Below, in pieces: positions 4,987 through 13,000 of a stretch of 64,000 nt of DNA. The position numbers were made by a program, and so were the translations under genes. The notes under the pieces were generated by a model. It was not told the DNA's origin. It searched no databases and saw nothing but the letters and a program-made list of their open reading frames with translations. Each line of letters begins with the position of its first letter. The first letter of the stretch is position 1. Origin of the DNA: Bacteroidales bacterium (GTDB lineage Bacteria; Bacteroidota; Bacteroidia; Bacteroidales; PUMT01); the NCBI GenBank assembly GCA_007133565.1, contig SLMM01000125.1, forward strand, positions 6,716 to 70,715, read 5' to 3'.

Positions 4987-5149
4987 ATTATTGCACTACA
5001 GCCTTTGTGATACATTGTATTACTTTGAAGTGGCCTTAAAATGCACTGGCATGATAGGGTATACCGCATATATGGCGGTCTTAATAATGCATAAGGATTT
5101 ACGGCGTTTCGATAAGTGCCGGAAATATATTACTGGAACAAGGTTAATC

Positions 5150-6391
5150 ATGGTAAAAGTTTTATTTGTAATTCTGCTGATTGCGCAACCGGAGGCCGTT
5201 AACGCCGTTTTAAAACAGGACGGTTATGCAGAAATCAACGGTATTGTAAAGGATGCCGTTACAGGGAGGCATGTTCCGTTTGCTTCAGTATGGATCACGG
5301 GAAGCCATACCGGTACTGTATCAAACATCGACGGGGTGTTTACACTCAAGATACCTGGCTTTTATAAAATGAACGAAATATCAATTTCTCATATAGGTTA
5401 CAAAAAAGCAGGTTTTCCCATAGATATGCCTGAATCCGGCTACAGAGAGTTTCATATTCAACCCCACCCGTTACCCATACAGGAATTGGTTATCAAGCCT
5501 ACCGATGCACGCTCCCTGGTTGTCAGGGCATTGAATAAGGTTGAGCAGAATTATCCCGGTGAACCCTGGAAACTTACCGGGTTTTACCGTGAAACTATAC
5601 GGCAGAGAAGGGATTACGTATCGATTACCGAAGCAGTGGTTGATATTTACAAAGCACCCTATGGTTGCAGCAAAGGCCGGGATATGGTCCGGATAGTAAA
5701 AGGCCGGAAGAGCGGTAATGTGAAAAGAGCTGATACTCTATTGGTGAAGTTGAGAGGGGGGCCTCATGTATCTATGCTTCTGGATATTGTGAAAAACCCT
5801 GAACTTCTGATCTCTACTGAAACTGTAAATTTGTACAGGTTCGAACTTACAGATATCATAAAGATTGATGAAACATCAAATTATGTGGTAAGTTTTTCTC
5901 CCGGGGCAGAAACCGCATATCCGCTGTACTACGGGAAGCTTTATATTTCAGTCGAGAGACTGGCAATAACTATGGCTGAGTTCAGCATGGATCTGAGCGA
6001 CAGTGAAAAGGCTGTACCCAGTTTTATTTTCAGGAAACCTGCAAGGCTGAGGTTCACACCGGTAAACACAAAATACCTGGTCAGTTATGTAGAGAAAGAG
6101 GGTAGCTACCATGTCAGTTATCTGAGGTATGAAATTGAGTTTATGGCGGACTGGCGAAGGAGGTTGTTTCGTACAGGTTATGCTATTGTATCCGAAATGG
6201 CAATTACTGAACGAAGCTCTGATAATGTTGTCAGATTTGCTGCGGATGAGGCAGTCAGGCCATCAGCCGTGATGGCCGACATGGTTCCTGTATATTTTGA
6301 TGAGGATTTCTGGGGCGAATATAATTATATTGAACCGGACAGGTCGGTTGAGGCTGCAATAAAAAGACTGAACCGGCAACTGGATTGGTAG
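5150..6391 (+). CDS. Secreted CarboxypepD_reg-like domain protein with an uncharacterised C-terminal domain (paralogue of 7911-9641)
   Basis: Signal peptide MVKVLFVILLIAQPEAVNA. The segment INGIVKDAVTGRHVPFASVWITGSHTGTVSNIDGVFTLKIP is CarboxypepD_reg-like. The C-terminal ~330 aa align by eye with 7911-9641. The start was moved from the track TTG at 4991 to the ATG at 5150 that precedes the signal peptide. Confidence 0.6.
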   Translation: MVKVLFVILLIAQPEAVNAVLKQDGYAEINGIVKDAVTGRHVPFASVWITGSHTGTVSNIDGVFTLKIPGFYKMNEISISHIGYKKAGFPIDMPESGYREFHIQPHPLPIQELVIKPTDARSLVVRALNKVEQNYPGEPWKLTGFYRETIRQRRDYVSITEAVVDIYKAPYGCSKGRDMVRIVKGRKSGNVKRADTLLVKLRGGPHVSMLLDIVKNPELLISTETVNLYRFELTDIIKIDETSNYVVSFSPGAETAYPLYYGKLYISVERLAITMAEFSMDLSDSEKAVPSFIFRKPARLRFTPVNTKYLVSYVEKEGSYHVSYLRYEIEFMADWRRRLFRTGYAIVSEMAITERSSDNVVRFAADEAVRPSAVMADMVPVYFDEDFWGEYNYIEPDRSVEAAIKRLNRQLDW

Positions 6392-6435
6392 TTGAGTTGA
6401 ATAGTTAGTATCTTTACAGCAGGAGGATCCGATGT

Positions 6436-7020
6436 ATGGCATTGAAATGGATCGATAGTCAGCGTAGAACAAGGAATGACGATATTTCTGCGTTTGAGAT
6501 GCTTTTCAGGAAGTACTATCCGCTTCTTGTCAGGTATTCCTGCACATTTACACATGATATGGATGCCGCCGAAGAGATAGTGCAGGATTTCTTTTTTAAC
6601 TTCTGGAAGAACAGGAAAGAGATAAATATAAAATTTTCTGTTAAATCATATTTCTACAGATCGGTAAGGAACAATACCCTGAAATACCTTGAGGCGCTTG
6701 AGGTCAGAAGAAAGTACGCGACAAGTGTTATTGAAGGCGCCAGGGAGGCCCCGGGTTATGAGCAAAGTGATGTGGAGCTTTCGGAACTTCATGAACTTAT
6801 TGAGGAGACGCTGGAACAAATGCCGGAAAGATGCAGTACAATTTTCAGGATGAGCCGGTTCGGGGGACTGAAATATGAGGAGATTGCCGGCGAATTGTCG
6901 GTGTCAGTCAAGACGGTTGAGGCCAACATGGGTAAAGCCCTGAAAATGCTCAGGGAGAAGCTGGGCAGATACTATAATTCCGTTGCCAGGTTGGAAAATT
7001 CACGTAAATACAATAATTAA
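6436..7020 (+). CDS. RNA polymerase ECF-type sigma-70 factor (Bacteroides-type)
   Basis: Region 2 (FEMLFRKYYPLLVRYSCTFTHDMDAAEEIVQDFFFNFW) and the region 4 HTH (LKYEEIAGELSVSVKTVEANMGKALKML) are present. The gene sits immediately upstream of a FecR gene. Confidence 0.85.
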   Translation: MALKWIDSQRRTRNDDISAFEMLFRKYYPLLVRYSCTFTHDMDAAEEIVQDFFFNFWKNRKEINIKFSVKSYFYRSVRNNTLKYLEALEVRRKYATSVIEGAREAPGYEQSDVELSELHELIEETLEQMPERCSTIFRMSRFGGLKYEEIAGELSVSVKTVEANMGKALKMLREKLGRYYNSVARLENSRKYNN

Positions 7021-7041
7021 CACCATAATACCATTATTATC

Positions 7042-7899
7042 ATGGAATCGATTAGAACATACAGGGATGTTGATGTTGACCGGGCATGGGGCCGGGTACA
7101 CGGGCGGCTTGATAAAGAGGGCCTTATTCCTGATCAGGATGCCGTTGTAAGGATAATGCCGCTTTCGCGGATAGTCTCTGTAGCAGCTGTATTGGTTGCA
7201 CTGGTATCGTTCGGGGGCCTGGGGTATTTTTTATTGCCTGAGTTGCGTTCGCCCCGGTTGATGACACTGCAGACCGGAACAGGTAATCACACTTTGGTGC
7301 AAACTTTCAGTGACGGTAGTGTAGTTTATATGGCTGGAAATTCATATATCAGCTATCCTGACAGGTTTGCCAAAGATCAGCGTAAGGTTAACTTTTTGGG
7401 AGAGGCATTCTTCGATATAGTTGACAAGAGGGAACAACCGTTTTTAATCGGAGCCGGGAGCGCAGTGATAGAGGTTATGGGGACTGCGTTCAATCTGAGA
7501 TCAGATGAAACCGGGTTTGAACTGATTGTCGAGGAGGGCTCGGTCAGGGTAAGCCTTAACGATCTCCCCGGGTATTACCAAATAGTTGGCGAATGGGAAA
7601 TGCTCACGGGTAAGGCCGGCATTATGGAAAAGTCTCCGGTTATAGACCGTACTTACCTGTCATGGAGAATGAACAGGATGCAGTTCAGAGATGAAAAGCT
7701 TGAAAATATAGCCTCGGTTCTGAACAAGAATTATGATCTGCAGATCTATTTCGAAAATGATGCAATCAGGGAGAGAAGGCTGACGGTAACCTTTTTTGAA
7801 AACGACGTTGAGACCATTGCTGAGATAATAGCTTTCGGGCTGGGGCTCGATTTTGAAATACTGGAAGACCCGGGAATTCTTTTCAGTGACAGAAACTGA
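7042..7899 (+). CDS. FecR-family anti-sigma factor / transmembrane sensor
   Basis: Short cytoplasmic N-terminus, a single TM helix (VSVAAVLVALVSFGGLGYFLL) and a FecR domain (GEAFFDIVDKREQPFLIGAGSAVIEVMGTAFNL). Confidence 0.85.
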   Translation: MESIRTYRDVDVDRAWGRVHGRLDKEGLIPDQDAVVRIMPLSRIVSVAAVLVALVSFGGLGYFLLPELRSPRLMTLQTGTGNHTLVQTFSDGSVVYMAGNSYISYPDRFAKDQRKVNFLGEAFFDIVDKREQPFLIGAGSAVIEVMGTAFNLRSDETGFELIVEEGSVRVSLNDLPGYYQIVGEWEMLTGKAGIMEKSPVIDRTYLSWRMNRMQFRDEKLENIASVLNKNYDLQIYFENDAIRERRLTVTFFENDVETIAEIIAFGLGLDFEILEDPGILFSDRN

Positions 7900-7910
7900 G
7901 ATTGACAACA

Positions 7911-9641
7911 ATGCCCCTGAGCGGGGCGATTGGAAATGGCGAAAACATGTTCATCATGGCTTACGCATACAGGCATGGGCGGATAAATGCAGGAAGCAGT
8001 CTGGTTTCTCCTGCGGTCCGGATATTTATAGTTATTGTACTATGCCTTTTTGTTTCCGGTAAATACCTTAATGCCCTGGGTGATGAGATTCCGTCACCAG
8101 GTATATATTCTGCGCCGTCGGAAATTGACACGGCTGGCACCAGAGATGACATTGCCCCTGTTTTTGATACGATCGTGTCACTACCGAGGCAATATTCCAA
8201 CATCTATTCAATTCTTAACCAGATAAGTGGTCAGACAGGTTATTTCTTTGCATATGATACTGATATTGTAAATTCTGACCGGAGGGTGCGGATAAGGGCA
8301 GGCACGCGGACTGTTGCTTCATGGCTTGAGGAGGTGCTTGATGATCCGGGCCTTTCATACAGGGTTATTGAAAACCATATCCTGATATATCGTCAGGAAC
8401 TTGTGAAGGAACAGACGGCCGGCCATACAGATGCAGAAAGTACTGAATCCGGTGTAATAATCGTAAGGGGAAGGGTGCTGGATGAAGATTCCAGGGAGCC
8501 ATTACCTTACGCTACAGTTGGGATCAAGGGTGAATCAATAGGGATAATATCGAATTCTGACGGGTTTTTCAGCCTGCGGGTCCCTGCAGGTAATGACGAC
8601 AAACATATAGCAGTATCTCATATTGGTTACAAGACCCAGGCGCTGCCGGTCAGTATCTTCAGCTATGACCGCGTAGATATACTGATGGAAACCGAGTATA
8701 TATCGATTCCGGAGGTGATGATACGCTATTTTGACCCCCTGGGAACATTAGTGTCGGCTATCTCCAGAATTGATGATAATTACAGCAGCGACCCGGTATA
8801 TATGCTTAATTTTTATCGTGAGGGTGTCATGAGGGGCAATCGGTTCATTAACTATTCAGAGGCCTTCTTCCAGGTGTACAAGTCTTCCCATGTCAGAAAG
8901 TTTGAGCCTGACCAGGTCAGGCTCTTCCAGTCCCGTACCATCAGTAATACTGACCGCACCGATACTTTGATACTGAAGATACGGGCGGGGATACGCAGTT
9001 CTCTTGAACTTGATTTTATAAAGAATGTTCCCGATTTTCTGAATCCCGAGTTCCTGCATGAATATGAATATACAAGGGCCGATATCGTCTCTTATGACGG
9101 CAACATGGCTTATGCAGTTGCCTTTGAGCAGAAAGACCATATAACTGATCCGCTTTTTAAGGGTGTGCTATATATTGATATGGAGAGCCTGGCATTTCTC
9201 GGTGCGGATTTTGAAGTAAATCCCAAACATATCAGTAAGGCTCATTACCGGTTTATAACAAGAAAGAACAGGGATTACAGGGCTACCATAGACAAGGCTG
9301 CCTATACGGTCAGTTACAGGTATTATAACGGACATTATTATCTCAACCATGTAAGGGCTGACCTTCATCTGCGTTACAGGAGAAGGTTCAGTATATTCAG
9401 CAGTAACTACCATGTCTTTGTTGAAATGGCCAACAGCAGGATCGATACCGAGAATGTTGAGAGGTTCAGCAGGAGGGATGTGCTGAGGACTGACAGGGTA
9501 TTTATGGATGGAGGGCATGCATATGATCGTGATTTCTGGGAAGGGTACACTATCGTCCCGCCCGAGAGACATATTACCGAAGCGCTGACAAGAATTGAAT
9601 CGCAGATTGAAAGGGTTGTTGCCGGACAGAATGATAAATAA
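7911..9641 (+). CDS. STN-domain + CarboxypepD_reg-domain protein lacking a TonB-dependent plug/barrel; C-terminal domain paralogous to 5150-6391
   Basis: Signal/anchor segment VRIFIVIVLCLFVSG. STN-like block LPRQYSNIYSILNQISGQTGYFFAYD...LSYRVIENHILIY. CarboxypepD_reg block VRGRVLDEDSREPLPYATVGIKGESIGIISNSDGFFSLRV. About 370 aa remain, and they are similar to 5150-6391. The start is uncertain (TTG 7902, ATG 7911 or ATG 7947). Confidence 0.65.
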   Translation: MPLSGAIGNGENMFIMAYAYRHGRINAGSSLVSPAVRIFIVIVLCLFVSGKYLNALGDEIPSPGIYSAPSEIDTAGTRDDIAPVFDTIVSLPRQYSNIYSILNQISGQTGYFFAYDTDIVNSDRRVRIRAGTRTVASWLEEVLDDPGLSYRVIENHILIYRQELVKEQTAGHTDAESTESGVIIVRGRVLDEDSREPLPYATVGIKGESIGIISNSDGFFSLRVPAGNDDKHIAVSHIGYKTQALPVSIFSYDRVDILMETEYISIPEVMIRYFDPLGTLVSAISRIDDNYSSDPVYMLNFYREGVMRGNRFINYSEAFFQVYKSSHVRKFEPDQVRLFQSRTISNTDRTDTLILKIRAGIRSSLELDFIKNVPDFLNPEFLHEYEYTRADIVSYDGNMAYAVAFEQKDHITDPLFKGVLYIDMESLAFLGADFEVNPKHISKAHYRFITRKNRDYRATIDKAAYTVSYRYYNGHYYLNHVRADLHLRYRRRFSIFSSNYHVFVEMANSRIDTENVERFSRRDVLRTDRVFMDGGHAYDRDFWEGYTIVPPERHITEALTRIESQIERVVAGQNDK

Positions 9642-11038: not shown

Positions 11039-13000
11039 TCACCGGTAAGGGAGTATGTCCGGGGCAGACACCGTGAACCTGTCAAACAAACCGGACTTCT
11101 CGCTTATTATGTAAAACAGCCTGGTACGTGCATGTTCCGGGATTCTCGGGAAATATGCTATCCTGAACTGAAGGGTGGGGAGTACAAGGTGCTCATTGCG
11201 CACCCTCAGGCCTATTCCGAATCCGCTGTAAAAATCATCGGGCAGGAAAAGTTTTTCGCCATTGCCTATCCAGCCAAGATCTGCCATTCCGTAGATTGCA
11301 TACCTGAATCCGTACCAGCTTTTTCTGGCATAGAACATTGTTTCTGACTGAATGGTAAACCTTGAAGTCCCCGAAAGCTCATCGCTTCTCATTCCACGGA
11401 TTCCCCGTCTGTTGCTTATACTGATTGCTTCATCATCAAACCTTCTTATGCCCAGAGTGTAGTCAATAGAGAGGAATTGTCTCAACAGGAACCTGTTCAT
11501 GTGAAGGATGCCGGAAAACCCCGAGCTGTTCAGCCTGATAACGCCCTGCTCACGGACGTTGTTGTTAAAGAAGGTTCCTGCCGATACACTTGTGCTCAGG
11601 TAGCCTGTTCCTTCAATAAAGTTACTGTGTGATATGGCAAAACCGGCATAAAATCTTTGGTAGAACTGATTGTCCTCATAGCCTCCCGTCACTTCAAGCA
11701 CCGAACCAACCGGGATATCTTCAGTGGGGCCGAATTCGTATATATAGTTGCTTTTCAGGTAAGCCGAACGTGTCAGTATCAGGCTGGCCAGGTAAAGGTT
11801 CCGGTTATGGTAACTGTGTCTTGCCCTGCCATGTACCTGTGGCCTGTCAAAAAAAAGGTGCCTGTTGAACCTGGTGGTTATGTAAATATTTCTCCTGGTT
11901 GGCCTTCCTCTGCTGTCTAAAAGAAACGAACGTCCCAGCCAATAGTCATATTCATGAAAGTTAAGACTTTGGTTCAGGAATATGGTATCGGGAAATTGAA
12001 AGTCATCCAGCAGCGACGCTGATAAAAACTCAGCACCCCCGGCGTATTTCATTGAAGGAGTAATAAAATTCCTGCCTGTTTTTATGTGAAACGACCTGTT
12101 GTCAAAGGCATCTGTATAGTTTAACCTTGTATTTATGAATGATCCGCCTGCATTTTGAATTGAAACGGTAGTTCCGAAACCTATATGCTTATCCTCTGAT
12201 CCGTCAAGAAGAATCCTACCCTGCATTTCCTGTCCCCTGCCCAGGATATTTCTGTCATAAATGTCAATATGACCTTTGTCAATATCGCTCATATCCACAT
12301 CAAATCCTCGAGACCACCTGTCTTTGGTTACAACTACCAGATCTGCATATTCCGGATCGAGCTTATTTTCAAAAACAAATATCTGTGCATCTTCCAGGTA
12401 TGGCAGTTTCCTTAAAATACGTTCATTCTCTGCAAGTATGAACGGATCAATCCTGTCACCCGGGGTTACCAGCATATTATTTCGTATGACCCGGGGATTT
12501 GTATTGAAATGGAAAAATCCGGCCACCTGTCCCATTCCTCCTGATGAATGCCCCTGAGAATCAAATCCTCCTGCAAAAAGTCCGCCCTGGGTATAGTGTA
12601 TATCTCTGATGATCTTTCCTTCCCAGGGGATAAAATCCTTTACACCCTGCCGCGGCTCTTCTTCCGGCGCCCCGGCAGAAGCAGTGCTTTTTATCACTAT
12701 ACTTTGAAGCCAGTTTGTGAGGCGCCATCTTTGTGCTATTTTGCTGAGGTTTGCATAAAACTGTTCTTCCCCGGCATTGACGAAATTGCCGGAATGGTAT
12801 CCGTTGTAGTTCAGGTTACCTGTAATGCCGGTCATGCGCCGCTCTCCGGGCACCGGCAGGGAGTAGGCTCCGGAGCCGGGCCGGGGAGAGATCAGCCGCA
12901 GAGACAGGCTGTCGCCGGCAGCCGGAAGCTCCTGATATGCTGCTATCGGCAAAACATCTATCATGAGAAAAAATGAGGCTATTGCTGCAACTCTTTTCAC
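11039..13000 (-). CDS. Omp85-superfamily (BamA/TamA-like) outer-membrane protein with one POTRA-like segment
   Basis: Signal peptide MKRVAAIASFFLMIDVLPIAAYQ. POTRA-like block VTPGDRIDPFILAENERILRKLPYLEDAQIFVFENKLDPEYADLVVVTKDRWS. The rest is beta-strand-rich, with the terminal motif GFGIGLRVRNEHLVLPTLQFRIAYFP. Confidence 0.5.
   Translation of the reverse strand: MKRVAAIASFFLMIDVLPIAAYQELPAAGDSLSLRLISPRPGSGAYSLPVPGERRMTGITGNLNYNGYHSGNFVNAGEEQFYANLSKIAQRWRLTNWLQSIVIKSTASAGAPEEEPRQGVKDFIPWEGKIIRDIHYTQGGLFAGGFDSQGHSSGGMGQVAGFFHFNTNPRVIRNNMLVTPGDRIDPFILAENERILRKLPYLEDAQIFVFENKLDPEYADLVVVTKDRWSRGFDVDMSDIDKGHIDIYDRNILGRGQEMQGRILLDGSEDKHIGFGTTVSIQNAGGSFINTRLNYTDAFDNRSFHIKTGRNFITPSMKYAGGAEFLSASLLDDFQFPDTIFLNQSLNFHEYDYWLGRSFLLDSRGRPTRRNIYITTRFNRHLFFDRPQVHGRARHSYHNRNLYLASLILTRSAYLKSNYIYEFGPTEDIPVGSVLEVTGGYEDNQFYQRFYAGFAISHSNFIEGTGYLSTSVSAGTFFNNNVREQGVIRLNSSGFSGILHMNRFLLRQFLSIDYTLGIRRFDDEAISISNRRGIRGMRSDELSGTSRFTIQSETMFYARKSWYGFRYAIYGMADLGWIGNGEKLFLPDDFYSGFGIGLRVRNEHLVLPTLQFRIAYFPRIPEHARTRLFYIISEKSGLFDRFTVSAPDILPYR

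Follow-up and report, generated by a model that had tools for sequence, protein, structure and literature searches.

A stretch of 64,000 nucleotides from a Bacteroidales bacterium (assembly GCA_007133565.1, contig SLMM01000125.1, positions 6,716 to 70,715 of the forward strand), which was analysed at its full length and is called the window here, carries at 5150-9641 a cassette of four genes on the same strand. They encode a small protein with a signal peptide, an extracytoplasmic function (ECF) sigma factor, a FecR-type anti-sigma factor and a protein that combines the N-terminal head of a SusC transducer with a C-terminal domain of its own. We refer to the product of the last gene as LONG and to that of the first gene as short. 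In Bacteroidota, an ECF sigma factor with a FecR partner is assumed to take its input from a SusC-type transporter. Genomes of this phylum encode 22.5 ECF sigma factors on average (PMC7826278). The genes of the cassette, their promoter-like motif and the parts of the two outer proteins, including the N-terminal extension (NTE) known from SusC, lie in the window as follows.

5055-5083, + strand: ECF-type promoter-like motif TAGGGTA-N16-GTCTTA, 67 nt 5' of the ATG at 5150
5150-6391, + strand: short, the STN-less paralogue, 413 aa; CarbopepD_reg_2 (E 5.6e-12) is the sole Pfam domain matched
5150-5206, + strand: signal peptide of short, MVKVLFVILLIAQPEAVNA
5234-5461, + strand: NTE (CarbopepD_reg_2) of short
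5477-5497, + strand: TonB-box-like motif IQELVIK of short
5507-6388, + strand: C-domain of short
6436-7020, + strand: ECF sigma factor, 194 aa, Bacteroides-type and FecI-like; Sigma70_r2 and r4_2; TIGR02985 with 169.9 bits (cutoff 126.4)
7042-7899, + strand: FecR-type anti-sigma factor, 285 aa; FecR (PF04773, E 1.8e-13) and FecR_C (PF16344, E 4.3e-9)
7911-9641, + strand: LONG, barrel-less STN protein, 576 aa; alternative start TTG at 7902
8016-8075, + strand: hydrophobic region of the signal peptide of LONG, VRIFIVIVLCLFVSGKYLNA, read from the sequence
8157-8393, + strand: STN of LONG, residues 83-161 (PF07660, AlphaFold2 model, Foldseek)
8454-8687, + strand: NTE of LONG, residues 182-259, a CarbopepD_reg_2 domain with the SusC-type Ig-like fold (PF13715, Foldseek, phmmer)
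8706-8726, + strand: TonB-box-like motif IPEVMIR of LONG (phmmer alignment to known TonB boxes)
8736-9608, + strand: C-domain of LONG, about 290 aa, without a Pfam family (AlphaFold2 domain model, Foldseek)

An earlier note, made from the letters of this DNA, had drawn the same four open reading frames (ORFs) in the same order, and its coordinates stand. The gaps between the four ORFs are 44, 21 and 2-11 nt, the last of these being, as had been noted, 2 nt from the fecR stop to the TTG at 7902 or 11 nt to the ATG at 7911. The anti-sigma factor consists of a short cytoplasmic N-terminus, one transmembrane segment and periplasmic FecR and FecR_C domains. The gene 3' of LONG is a convergent chorismate-binding (pabB-like) gene; no SusD follows, in agreement with the note, and neither SusC nor SusD was found within the 64-kb window. 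A protein identical to LONG (P0001) is also encoded on contig PWKP01000105.1 of GCA_003559695.1.

Judged by its sequence, LONG has all the periplasmic parts that make up the head of a SusC transducer, i.e. the STN, the NTE and a TonB-box-like motif. CarbopepD_reg_2 (PF13715) matches residues 188-274 (E 6.3e-16), and Foldseek superposes the NTE of LONG on that of SusCdex (9hfj) with a target-normalised TM-score of 0.86, an rmsd of 1.6 Å and 29% identity; phmmer likewise matches the NTE region to 9hfj, 8aa4 and 6ytc. The STN match in LONG of the window covers residues 116-165 (E 4.4e-4, 20.4 bits), that of the LONG of Parabacteroides distasonis scores 26.9 bits, and 22 of the 25 long homologues match PF07660, the best of them with E 2e-7. 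The full-length AlphaFold2 (AF2) model of LONG (pLDDT 76.5) consists of an N-terminal hydrophobic helix, the STN (83-161), the Ig-like NTE (182-259) and the C-domain (276-512) with additional helices. Its linkers are of low confidence, and the STN, predicted at a pLDDT of 77-94, is built of beta-alpha-beta repeats, for which a Foldseek search of the PDB returned the signalling domains of FoxA and FpvA and the N0 domain of secretins. The STN-like block described in the earlier note is thus borne out by the homologues and by the fold. Furthermore, the STN and NTE of LONG are colinear with the N-termini of annotated SusC/RagA proteins and TonB-dependent receptors (27-31% identity, 93-96% coverage), and residues 94-288 of LONG align with residues 39-217 of the SusC of a canonical sigma-FecR-SusC-SusD locus of Chondrinema (E 1e-19), which confirms the SusC/RagA-type N-terminal architecture that had been proposed; the FecR of the cassette aligns with the FecR of the same locus over its full length (E 2e-23).

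STN followed by NTE is the normal order in FecR-coupled SusC. A real transducer from a metagenome has the STN at 72-122, the NTE at 139-220 and the Plug at 228-335. The STN stands in front of the NTE in the FecR-coupled SusC transducers at L100 9052-12459 and L090 4887-8207. One sentence in the literature places the NTE before the STN (PMC7782687), contrary to the transducers examined here.

The remainder of a transducer is missing from LONG. Neither Plug (PF07715) nor TonB_dep_Rec (PF00593) matched LONG even at E<=1, TIGR04056 (SusC/RagA) covers just its model positions 3-83 of 981 (46.7 bits, cutoff 368), and no plug or barrel domain is among the precomputed domains of the 120 best LONG homologues. 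LONG is not a TonB-dependent transducer, because the plug and the barrel are absent, and its earlier description as barrel-less holds.

The earlier note had also seen no plug motifs, and none were found, but it missed a TonB-box-like motif. Directly 3' of the NTE, LONG has YISIPEVMIRYFDP, for which the family consensus is ISIQEVIIRYxDP, and the equivalent stretch of short is LPIQELVIKPTDA. In phmmer alignments the motif of LONG falls on VDEVVVT of the Bt1763 NTE construct (6ytc) and on LDEVVV of SusCdex, and in a pairwise alignment it faces NLEELIVTGY of the FecR-coupled SusC of Chondrinema. VDEVVV is the TonB box of Bt1763, the deletion or mutation of which abolishes growth on levan, and the NTE of this protein is essential (PMC7782687). 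The presence of QEV[IM]I in 85 of 85 genome loci is circular, since this peptide was the retrieval pattern, and conservation was for this reason read from an independent alignment collected by homology (A1; 26 LONG homologues, 39-68% identity, 49 invariant columns), in which E268, V269 and I271 do not vary and Q267, R272 and D275 hardly vary. The stretch has a pLDDT below 50 in both AF2 models and is hence predicted to be flexible, as expected for a TonB box.

LONG and short are most likely soluble periplasmic proteins. A lipobox-like motif is rare in both families (found in 8 of the 118 long homologues and in 1 of the 119 short ones), and in most aligned LONG homologues the hydrophobic region is followed by a small-x-small pattern and then Q. 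Such a pattern is typical of signal-peptidase-I substrates in this phylum, and these two features together point to secretion into the periplasm.

About 305 aa follow the CarboxypepD_reg block of LONG, where the earlier note had counted about 370 aa. The C-domain in this region matched no Pfam or NCBIfam family, the Pfam models of the LolA clan were matched by none of the window proteins, and a comparison of its sequence profile with the PDB revealed no relative, giving chance matches to HLA chains only. A domain-only AF2 model computed from 46 sequences (pLDDT 83, pTM 0.81) shows eleven long strands that run antiparallel, along with helices: two at the N-terminus, others inside the domain and a long one at the C-terminus. 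The top Foldseek match of the C-domain is a DUF1329 protein (4z48; E 5e-8 and 2e-7 with two models), and further matches are LolA3 of Porphyromonas gingivalis (9tp6), MucB-MucA (6in9) and NE2245 (3buu); 3bk5, an 'outer membrane lipoprotein-sorting protein' domain, was matched by the full-length model of LONG only. The lipid-binding sheets of lipovitellin, MTP and ApoB stand further down the list, and outer-membrane barrels reach a probability of at most 0.23. The prediction of the structure and the search for its neighbours, both of which the earlier note had proposed, have thus turned up LolA-like proteins and no convincing barrel. The LolA-like matches have a probability of about 1.0, yet their TM-scores are just 0.25-0.43, and because of these low TM-scores we call the predicted fold LolA-superfamily-like with moderate confidence only.

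With E<=1e-3, a profile built from the C-domains of both paralogues retrieved 2196 clusters (50% identity), of which the best 150 fall into two main length classes of about 410-460 and 490-545 aa, besides shorter, probably partial ones. A protein of 901 aa (P0201) contains two C-domains and a faint match to LolA_like (PF17131, E 0.0065). Nineteen columns of the C-domain are invariant in both paralogues.

The profile of DUF5686 (PF18939) was matched below its threshold by 9 of 46 relatives (best 27.8 bits against 39.2 bits), over profile positions 120-243 of 669, and by none of the window proteins. With hhalign, the C-domain family aligns with a real DUF5686 protein at 96.9% probability (E 2e-10), over the NTE, a TonB-box-like motif (LKEVVVQG) and the first part of the C-domain. 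These profile comparisons support a remote homology between the C-domain and the N-terminal part of DUF5686. The proteins of the cassette are not members of DUF5686, because the matches are partial and below threshold. The module of NTE, TonB-box-like motif and C-domain recurs elsewhere (L093 3441-6002; L091 3378-5678; L092 2145-4649; P0201), in a DUF5686 protein, in hydrolase fusions and in the doubled form, the fusion partners being a serine hydrolase of the beta-lactamase family and a protein of the erythromycin esterase family. The hydrolase fusions suggest that the NTE and C-domain make up a portable binding or targeting module. The gene for the DUF5686 protein of the hhalign comparison was found inside an inositol-phospholipid cluster, together with genes for PgpA, GtrA, a CDP-alcohol phosphatidyltransferase, DUF4833 and PAP2, and Heaver et al. 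have reported that a 'carboxypeptidase-regulatory-like' gene of the BT_1527 type is conserved near both types of inositol-lipid cluster (PMC9246714). This is circumstantial evidence for a lipid-related role of the C-domain/DUF5686 superfamily.

The first gene of the cassette had been described as a CarboxypepD_reg protein, which its CarbopepD_reg_2 match upholds; what had escaped attention is that short is a paralogue of LONG. It aligns with residues 176-570 of LONG at 30% identity over 396 aa (E 4e-62), and is made up of signal peptide, NTE, TonB-box-like motif and C-domain, without the STN. The family of short comprises 1879 clusters of about 405-460 aa, and in the genome loci examined its gene is always the first of the cassette. 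In the deposited annotation this gene encodes 446 aa and runs from 5051 to 6391 of the window (L001 7141-8481), with a start that overlaps the promoter motif at 5055-5083. The ATG at 5150 is the likelier start because of this overlap, and it gives a clean signal peptide. In RNA-seq data from Parabacteroides, NQ542_RS07340 (short) and NQ542_RS07355 (LONG) were both about 4-fold down with sialic acid (PMC12893687), a joint decrease that fits co-transcription.

In a scan of one genome per species, at least 177 species encode a relative of LONG. Upstream DNA was adequate in about 70 of the 80 species-level loci fetched, and every one of these has the order short(+)-sigma(+)-fecR(+)-LONG(+), so that the survey suggested in the earlier note has found LONG always behind sigma and FecR where the upstream DNA suffices, and never with a barrel. 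The same four-gene order is present on 6 metagenomic contigs that come from different lineages and have differing flanks, and in P. distasonis. All 85 genomic copies of LONG are 507-579 aa long, and the orthologue in a close relative with identical flanking genes (L004) has 542 aa; none of the orthologues is a full-length SusC. LONG homologues form 516 clusters, and the complete ones among the best 120 are about 490-580 aa long, many of them with PF07660. The genes that flank the cassette fall into 149 small families, mostly housekeeping (e.g. Suf, trigger factor, pabB and shikimate kinase), and a survey of neighbour families over the cassette loci found no transporter or SusD conserved beside it. 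These varied, housekeeping flanks indicate that the cassette is autonomous, lies outside polysaccharide utilisation loci and is not accessory. The block had been called accessory-looking; it has the GC content of its surroundings and, with its spread over at least 177 species, looks core-like instead.

The hosts are Bacteroidales, including Tenuifilaceae, Lentimicrobiaceae, Prolixibacteraceae, metagenome-assembled genomes (MAGs) labelled 'Rikenellaceae' and Perlabentimonas gracilis, and, among gut species, P. distasonis and Phocaeicola massiliensis. Complete genomes with the cassette include OY762227.1, that of P. distasonis ATCC 8503 and that of P. gracilis; the sigma factor of the P. distasonis cassette is WP_005856513. 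The cassette is probably single-copy in each genome. Seven loci (L006/L042, L008, L014, L015, L017 and L024) have two copies of short upstream of sigma, usually in tandem, and in most of them just one copy has the promoter motif 5' of it; in L008 a gene of the SSF family lies between the two copies, and the motif precedes both. The cassette of P. distasonis (L089, NZ_OY725779.1) sits directly after oxyR. This record is labelled 'plasmid 34', is 375 kb long and non-mobilizable, and carries oxyR, dihydroorotase and RND efflux genes; it looks like a fragment of the chromosome. One contig with the cassette (L061, SACF01000029.1) belongs to a MAG labelled Alphaproteobacteria, probably through mis-binning. 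In L007 (849-3850) the cassette follows directly 3' of a cluster of MMPL, DUF1329/TP_0789-like and DUF1302 genes, a single case, and this vicinity to DUF1329, the best structural neighbour of the C-domain, may be a coincidence.

ECF promoters consist of two short boxes about 16 nt apart, with a second box that contains TC. Of 68 regions upstream of the cassette, 55-64 contain ATAGGGTA, whereas shuffles reach at most 10-31, and 16 nt 3' of ATAGGGTA stands a second box (GGTCTTAT, GTATCTTAT or GGTCATAT), the whole motif keeping a fixed distance from the gene. The copy in the window, with a position weight matrix (PWM) score of 24.2, is the sole match to the consensus ATAGGGTA-N16-TCWTA in the 64 kb, and the motif also precedes the cassette of P. 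distasonis. Since it has two boxes, a spacing of 16 nt and TC in the second box, we read the motif at 5055-5083 as the putative autoregulated ECF promoter of the cassette. A scan of the cassette for internal terminators and sigma-70 promoters gave nothing above shuffles, and a candidate second motif in the spacer between short and sigma was discarded as weak k-mers only, overlapping the region of the sigma start codon. We infer that the four genes form one operon, P(ECF)-short-sigma-fecR-LONG, with an autoregulated sigma factor.

Related loci of about 1 Mb in total, scanned with the PWM, gave one extra convincing site, in a Tenuifilaceae genome:

L005 13790-13825, - strand: extra promoter copy TGATAGGGTAATCATCGAATTGTCGGTCATATTG, about 70 nt before the SusC-like gene at L005:10257-13715 (- strand)

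The gene behind it encodes 1152 aa, without an STN and without a SusD partner. The score of the site, 22.5, falls within the range of true cassette promoters, and the SusC-like gene may belong to the sigma regulon in this genome. On two orthologous contigs (L202 764-793 and L095 485-514) a high-scoring intergenic copy of the motif lies 31 nt before a gene for a PNPOx-like protein of 176 aa; the gene may belong to the regulon or the match may be due to chance, two contigs being too few to decide.

Among known systems, the closest precedent of the cassette is PUMA3 of Pseudomonas aeruginosa, in which VreA, a mostly soluble protein of 23 kDa with an STN and no barrel, works with the sigma factor VreI and the regulator VreR, and has a second domain akin to the one at the C-terminus of TolA/TonB (PMC2729926). 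Both systems combine an ECF sigma factor and a FecR-type regulator with a small, probably periplasmic STN receptor that lacks a barrel. They differ in that LONG has, together with an NTE and a LolA-like domain, the complementary TonB-box-like motif, and its Foldseek lists, set beside VreA by description only, hold no match to a domain like the TolA/TonB C-terminal one. The gene order is also different (vreA-vreI-vreR against short-sigma-fecR-LONG), PUMA3 has no STN-less paralogue and belongs to another phylum, and, going by the description of VreA, there is no sequence relationship outside the STN. With the SusC/RagA transducers the cassette shares a sigma factor of TIGR02985, an anti-sigma factor with FecR and FecR_C, the order signal peptide-STN-NTE-TonB box and the order sigma-fecR-receptor. 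Unlike them, it has no plug, 22-strand barrel, SusD or polysaccharide utilisation locus, and it adds an STN-less paralogue upstream and housekeeping flanks.

RseB/MucB is a periplasmic protein of the LolA fold that communicates with an anti-sigma factor through the periplasmic domain of the latter and responds to lipidic molecules of the envelope, and is thus alike in concept; MucB-MucA (6in9) is among the fold matches of the C-domain. There is however no sequence similarity, the MucB fold match is weak (TM 0.22-0.25), and RseB binds its anti-sigma factor RseA, in the place of which the cassette has FecR, directly and without an STN or a TonB box. The DUF5686 proteins have the NTE, a TonB-box-like motif (KEVVVQG) and a homologous first domain in common with the cassette, but are about 850 aa long, with an extra region of about 400 aa and no link to sigma or FecR. 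The proteins structurally nearest to the C-domain (4z48, 3bk5, 9tp6 and 3buu) come from the LolA/LolB/DUF1329 superfamily of carriers for lipoproteins and lipids; the C-domain is larger and has low global TM-scores to them. We know of no member of the LolA family with an NTE, a TonB box or an STN.

BT4460-62 of Bacteroides thetaiotaomicron, a CarboxypepD-like protein and a sigma factor beside plsC, was considered and set aside, as no FecR is listed there. The ECF classification paper assigns the FecR-linked sigma factors of Bacteroidetes to ECF239/240, which it ties to carbohydrate uptake, and its main text does not contain the arrangement of the cassette. We found no functional description of the cassette in the literature, and the databases name the family by its domains only, so no assigned function unrelated to signalling has come to light. 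The earlier note had suggested, with due caution, that the signal may be delivered here by a non-transporter envelope protein. With neither a plug or barrel match, nor full-length SusC orthologues, nor an unrelated function found, this reading is supported; the paralogy of LONG and short, the TonB-box-like motif, the LolA-like, DUF5686-related domain, the promoter and the precedent of VreA are additions to it.

The cassette is likely to be a sigma/anti-sigma module for which LONG is the periplasmic input, and the homology of its parts together with the invariant synteny suggests that LONG signals to FecR. The explanation that we prefer as a whole, an autoregulated module like those of cell-surface signalling with an input other than a transporter, seems to us somewhat on the probable side. 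That the C-domain binds a hydrophobic ligand is plausible, if a little short of probable, and that TonB takes part is a still more tentative proposal. The STN of LONG would contact the periplasmic FecR/FecR_C part of the anti-sigma factor, as in FecA/FecR. The ligand of the C-domain would be a hydrophobic or amphipathic molecule of the envelope, e.g. a lipid, a glycolipid, the acyl chains of lipoproteins or an imported lipophilic nutrient, and its occupancy would alter the exposure of the adjacent TonB box in LONG. Engagement of TonB would then send a signal through the NTE and STN to FecR, leading to the inactivation of FecR and the release of the sigma factor, which would transcribe from ATAGGGTA-N16-TCWTA promoters and so raise its own operon. 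Short would bind the same ligand without being able to signal, as an effector or buffer (a carrier or chaperone), and LONG would report the saturation of short, closing a homeostatic loop. A bolder version, in which LONG has a genuine TonB box and TonB pulls on this ligand-loaded soluble sensor so that FecR is processed, i.e. TonB-energised signalling without an outer-membrane transporter, with short as the carrier that is measured, is in our opinion doubtful. To our knowledge, Bacteroidales have no RseA, RseB or DegS, and if this version were true they would gain a dedicated homeostatic response to envelope lipids, and the NTE of SusC would have a function accessible to study without a transporter.

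Several points weigh against the reading that we prefer. The STN match of LONG in the window lies under the Pfam gathering score of 28.4, and in this respect the STN-like block of the earlier note is less secure in the protein itself. We know of no established role for a TonB box on a soluble protein, and the motif of LONG could pair with a partner other than TonB. Among the columns that both paralogues share without variation are several with charged and aromatic residues (FYRE, E60, R85, D94, D111, R225, E248 and W286), and these would suit a polar or specific binding site, or even one for catalysis, better than a cavity that is simply hydrophobic. Beyond the operon, the scan of related loci (about 1 Mb) yielded just one extra strong promoter copy, and a metagenome scan with ATAGGGTA-N16-TCATAT gave 120 loci, among them 5 cassette promoters and otherwise mostly chance matches, as most of the higher-scoring sites examined lie in coding regions.

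One alternative is that of a split transducer or periplasmic shuttle, in which LONG and short serve a TonB-dependent transporter of the outer membrane whose gene lies elsewhere in the regulon: the C-domain would receive the imported lipophilic substrate or dock under the barrel, LONG would report transport to FecR, and the subject would be the regulation of nutrient uptake and not envelope homeostasis. The promoter copy before the SusC-like gene of L005 speaks for it, as do the SusC/SusD or other TonB-dependent transporter genes found 3' of LONG, in the same orientation, in L076, L006/L042 and L008, two TonB-dependent receptors that fall along with short and LONG in the Parabacteroides RNA-seq data (PMC12893687), and the outer-membrane partner that has also been proposed for VreA (PMC2729926). 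Yet no transporter is conserved next to the cassette, the neighbouring ones are about as many as chance would give at the density of such genes in Bacteroidota (by our estimate, not by computation), and the promoter search found one extra site, and none in the window; we regard this alternative as rather unlikely. It is less likely still that LONG is a feedback modulator, a sigma-induced decoy STN on FecR that sets the gain or shuts the response off while the real input is, e.g., stress-triggered proteolysis. As the last gene of a sigma-dependent operon LONG would indeed follow sigma activity in its level, but a decoy needs the STN only, whereas LONG keeps the NTE, a near-invariant TonB-box-like motif and a C-domain of 300 aa, the 19 shared invariant columns of which argue for a function that depends on a ligand or partner.

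The C-domain consists nearly entirely of long antiparallel strands, porins and OmpX appear far down its Foldseek list, and the further 400 or so residues of the DUF5686 relatives might form a barrel, from which one could suppose that the C-domain is a small outer-membrane beta-barrel and LONG an outer-membrane receptor of an unrecognised type. Against a barrel probability of at most 0.23 stands one of 1.0 for LolA-like proteins; moreover, LONG has at its C-terminus a long helix and then a charged tail (VAGQNDK) in place of an aromatic beta-signal, the strands abound in Arg, Lys, Asp and Glu, and the same module is fused to soluble hydrolases of the periplasmic type, which together make a barrel very improbable. 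Finally, the homology of the N-terminal 200 residues of LONG to SusC transducers could come from a degraded transducer, so that LONG would be a remnant, a pseudogene or an assembly artefact. This is refuted by the constant length and domain order over 516 clusters and 85 genomic copies, by the 49 invariant columns at 39-68% identity, and by the C-domain, which makes up a separate, folded family of 2196 clusters and has a paralogue in the same operon.

In the neighbourhood of the cassette, a 653-aa ORF at 11039-13000 (- strand) has a weak match of the ShlB/FhaC type (Omp85-like; E 1e-3, below the cutoff) and may encode an unclassified outer-membrane barrel. It stays beside pabB in the close relatives L001 and L004.

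Set against the assumption that FecR-paired sigma factors of Bacteroidota listen to transporters, the cassette is a conserved exception, in which a secreted protein has the head of SusC, the transporter is replaced by a putative lipid-binding domain, and a non-signalling twin is encoded alongside. If the explanation that we prefer is true, it would represent a new class of input for cell-surface signalling, and a candidate pathway of envelope or lipid homeostasis in a phylum in which little is known of the responses to envelope stress. A soluble, tractable system would also become available for studying the role of the essential SusC NTE and its choice of TonB, and there would be a first way into the function of the large C-domain/DUF5686 superfamily. 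As the cassette is present in a cultured gut species, P. distasonis, these predictions can be tested there.

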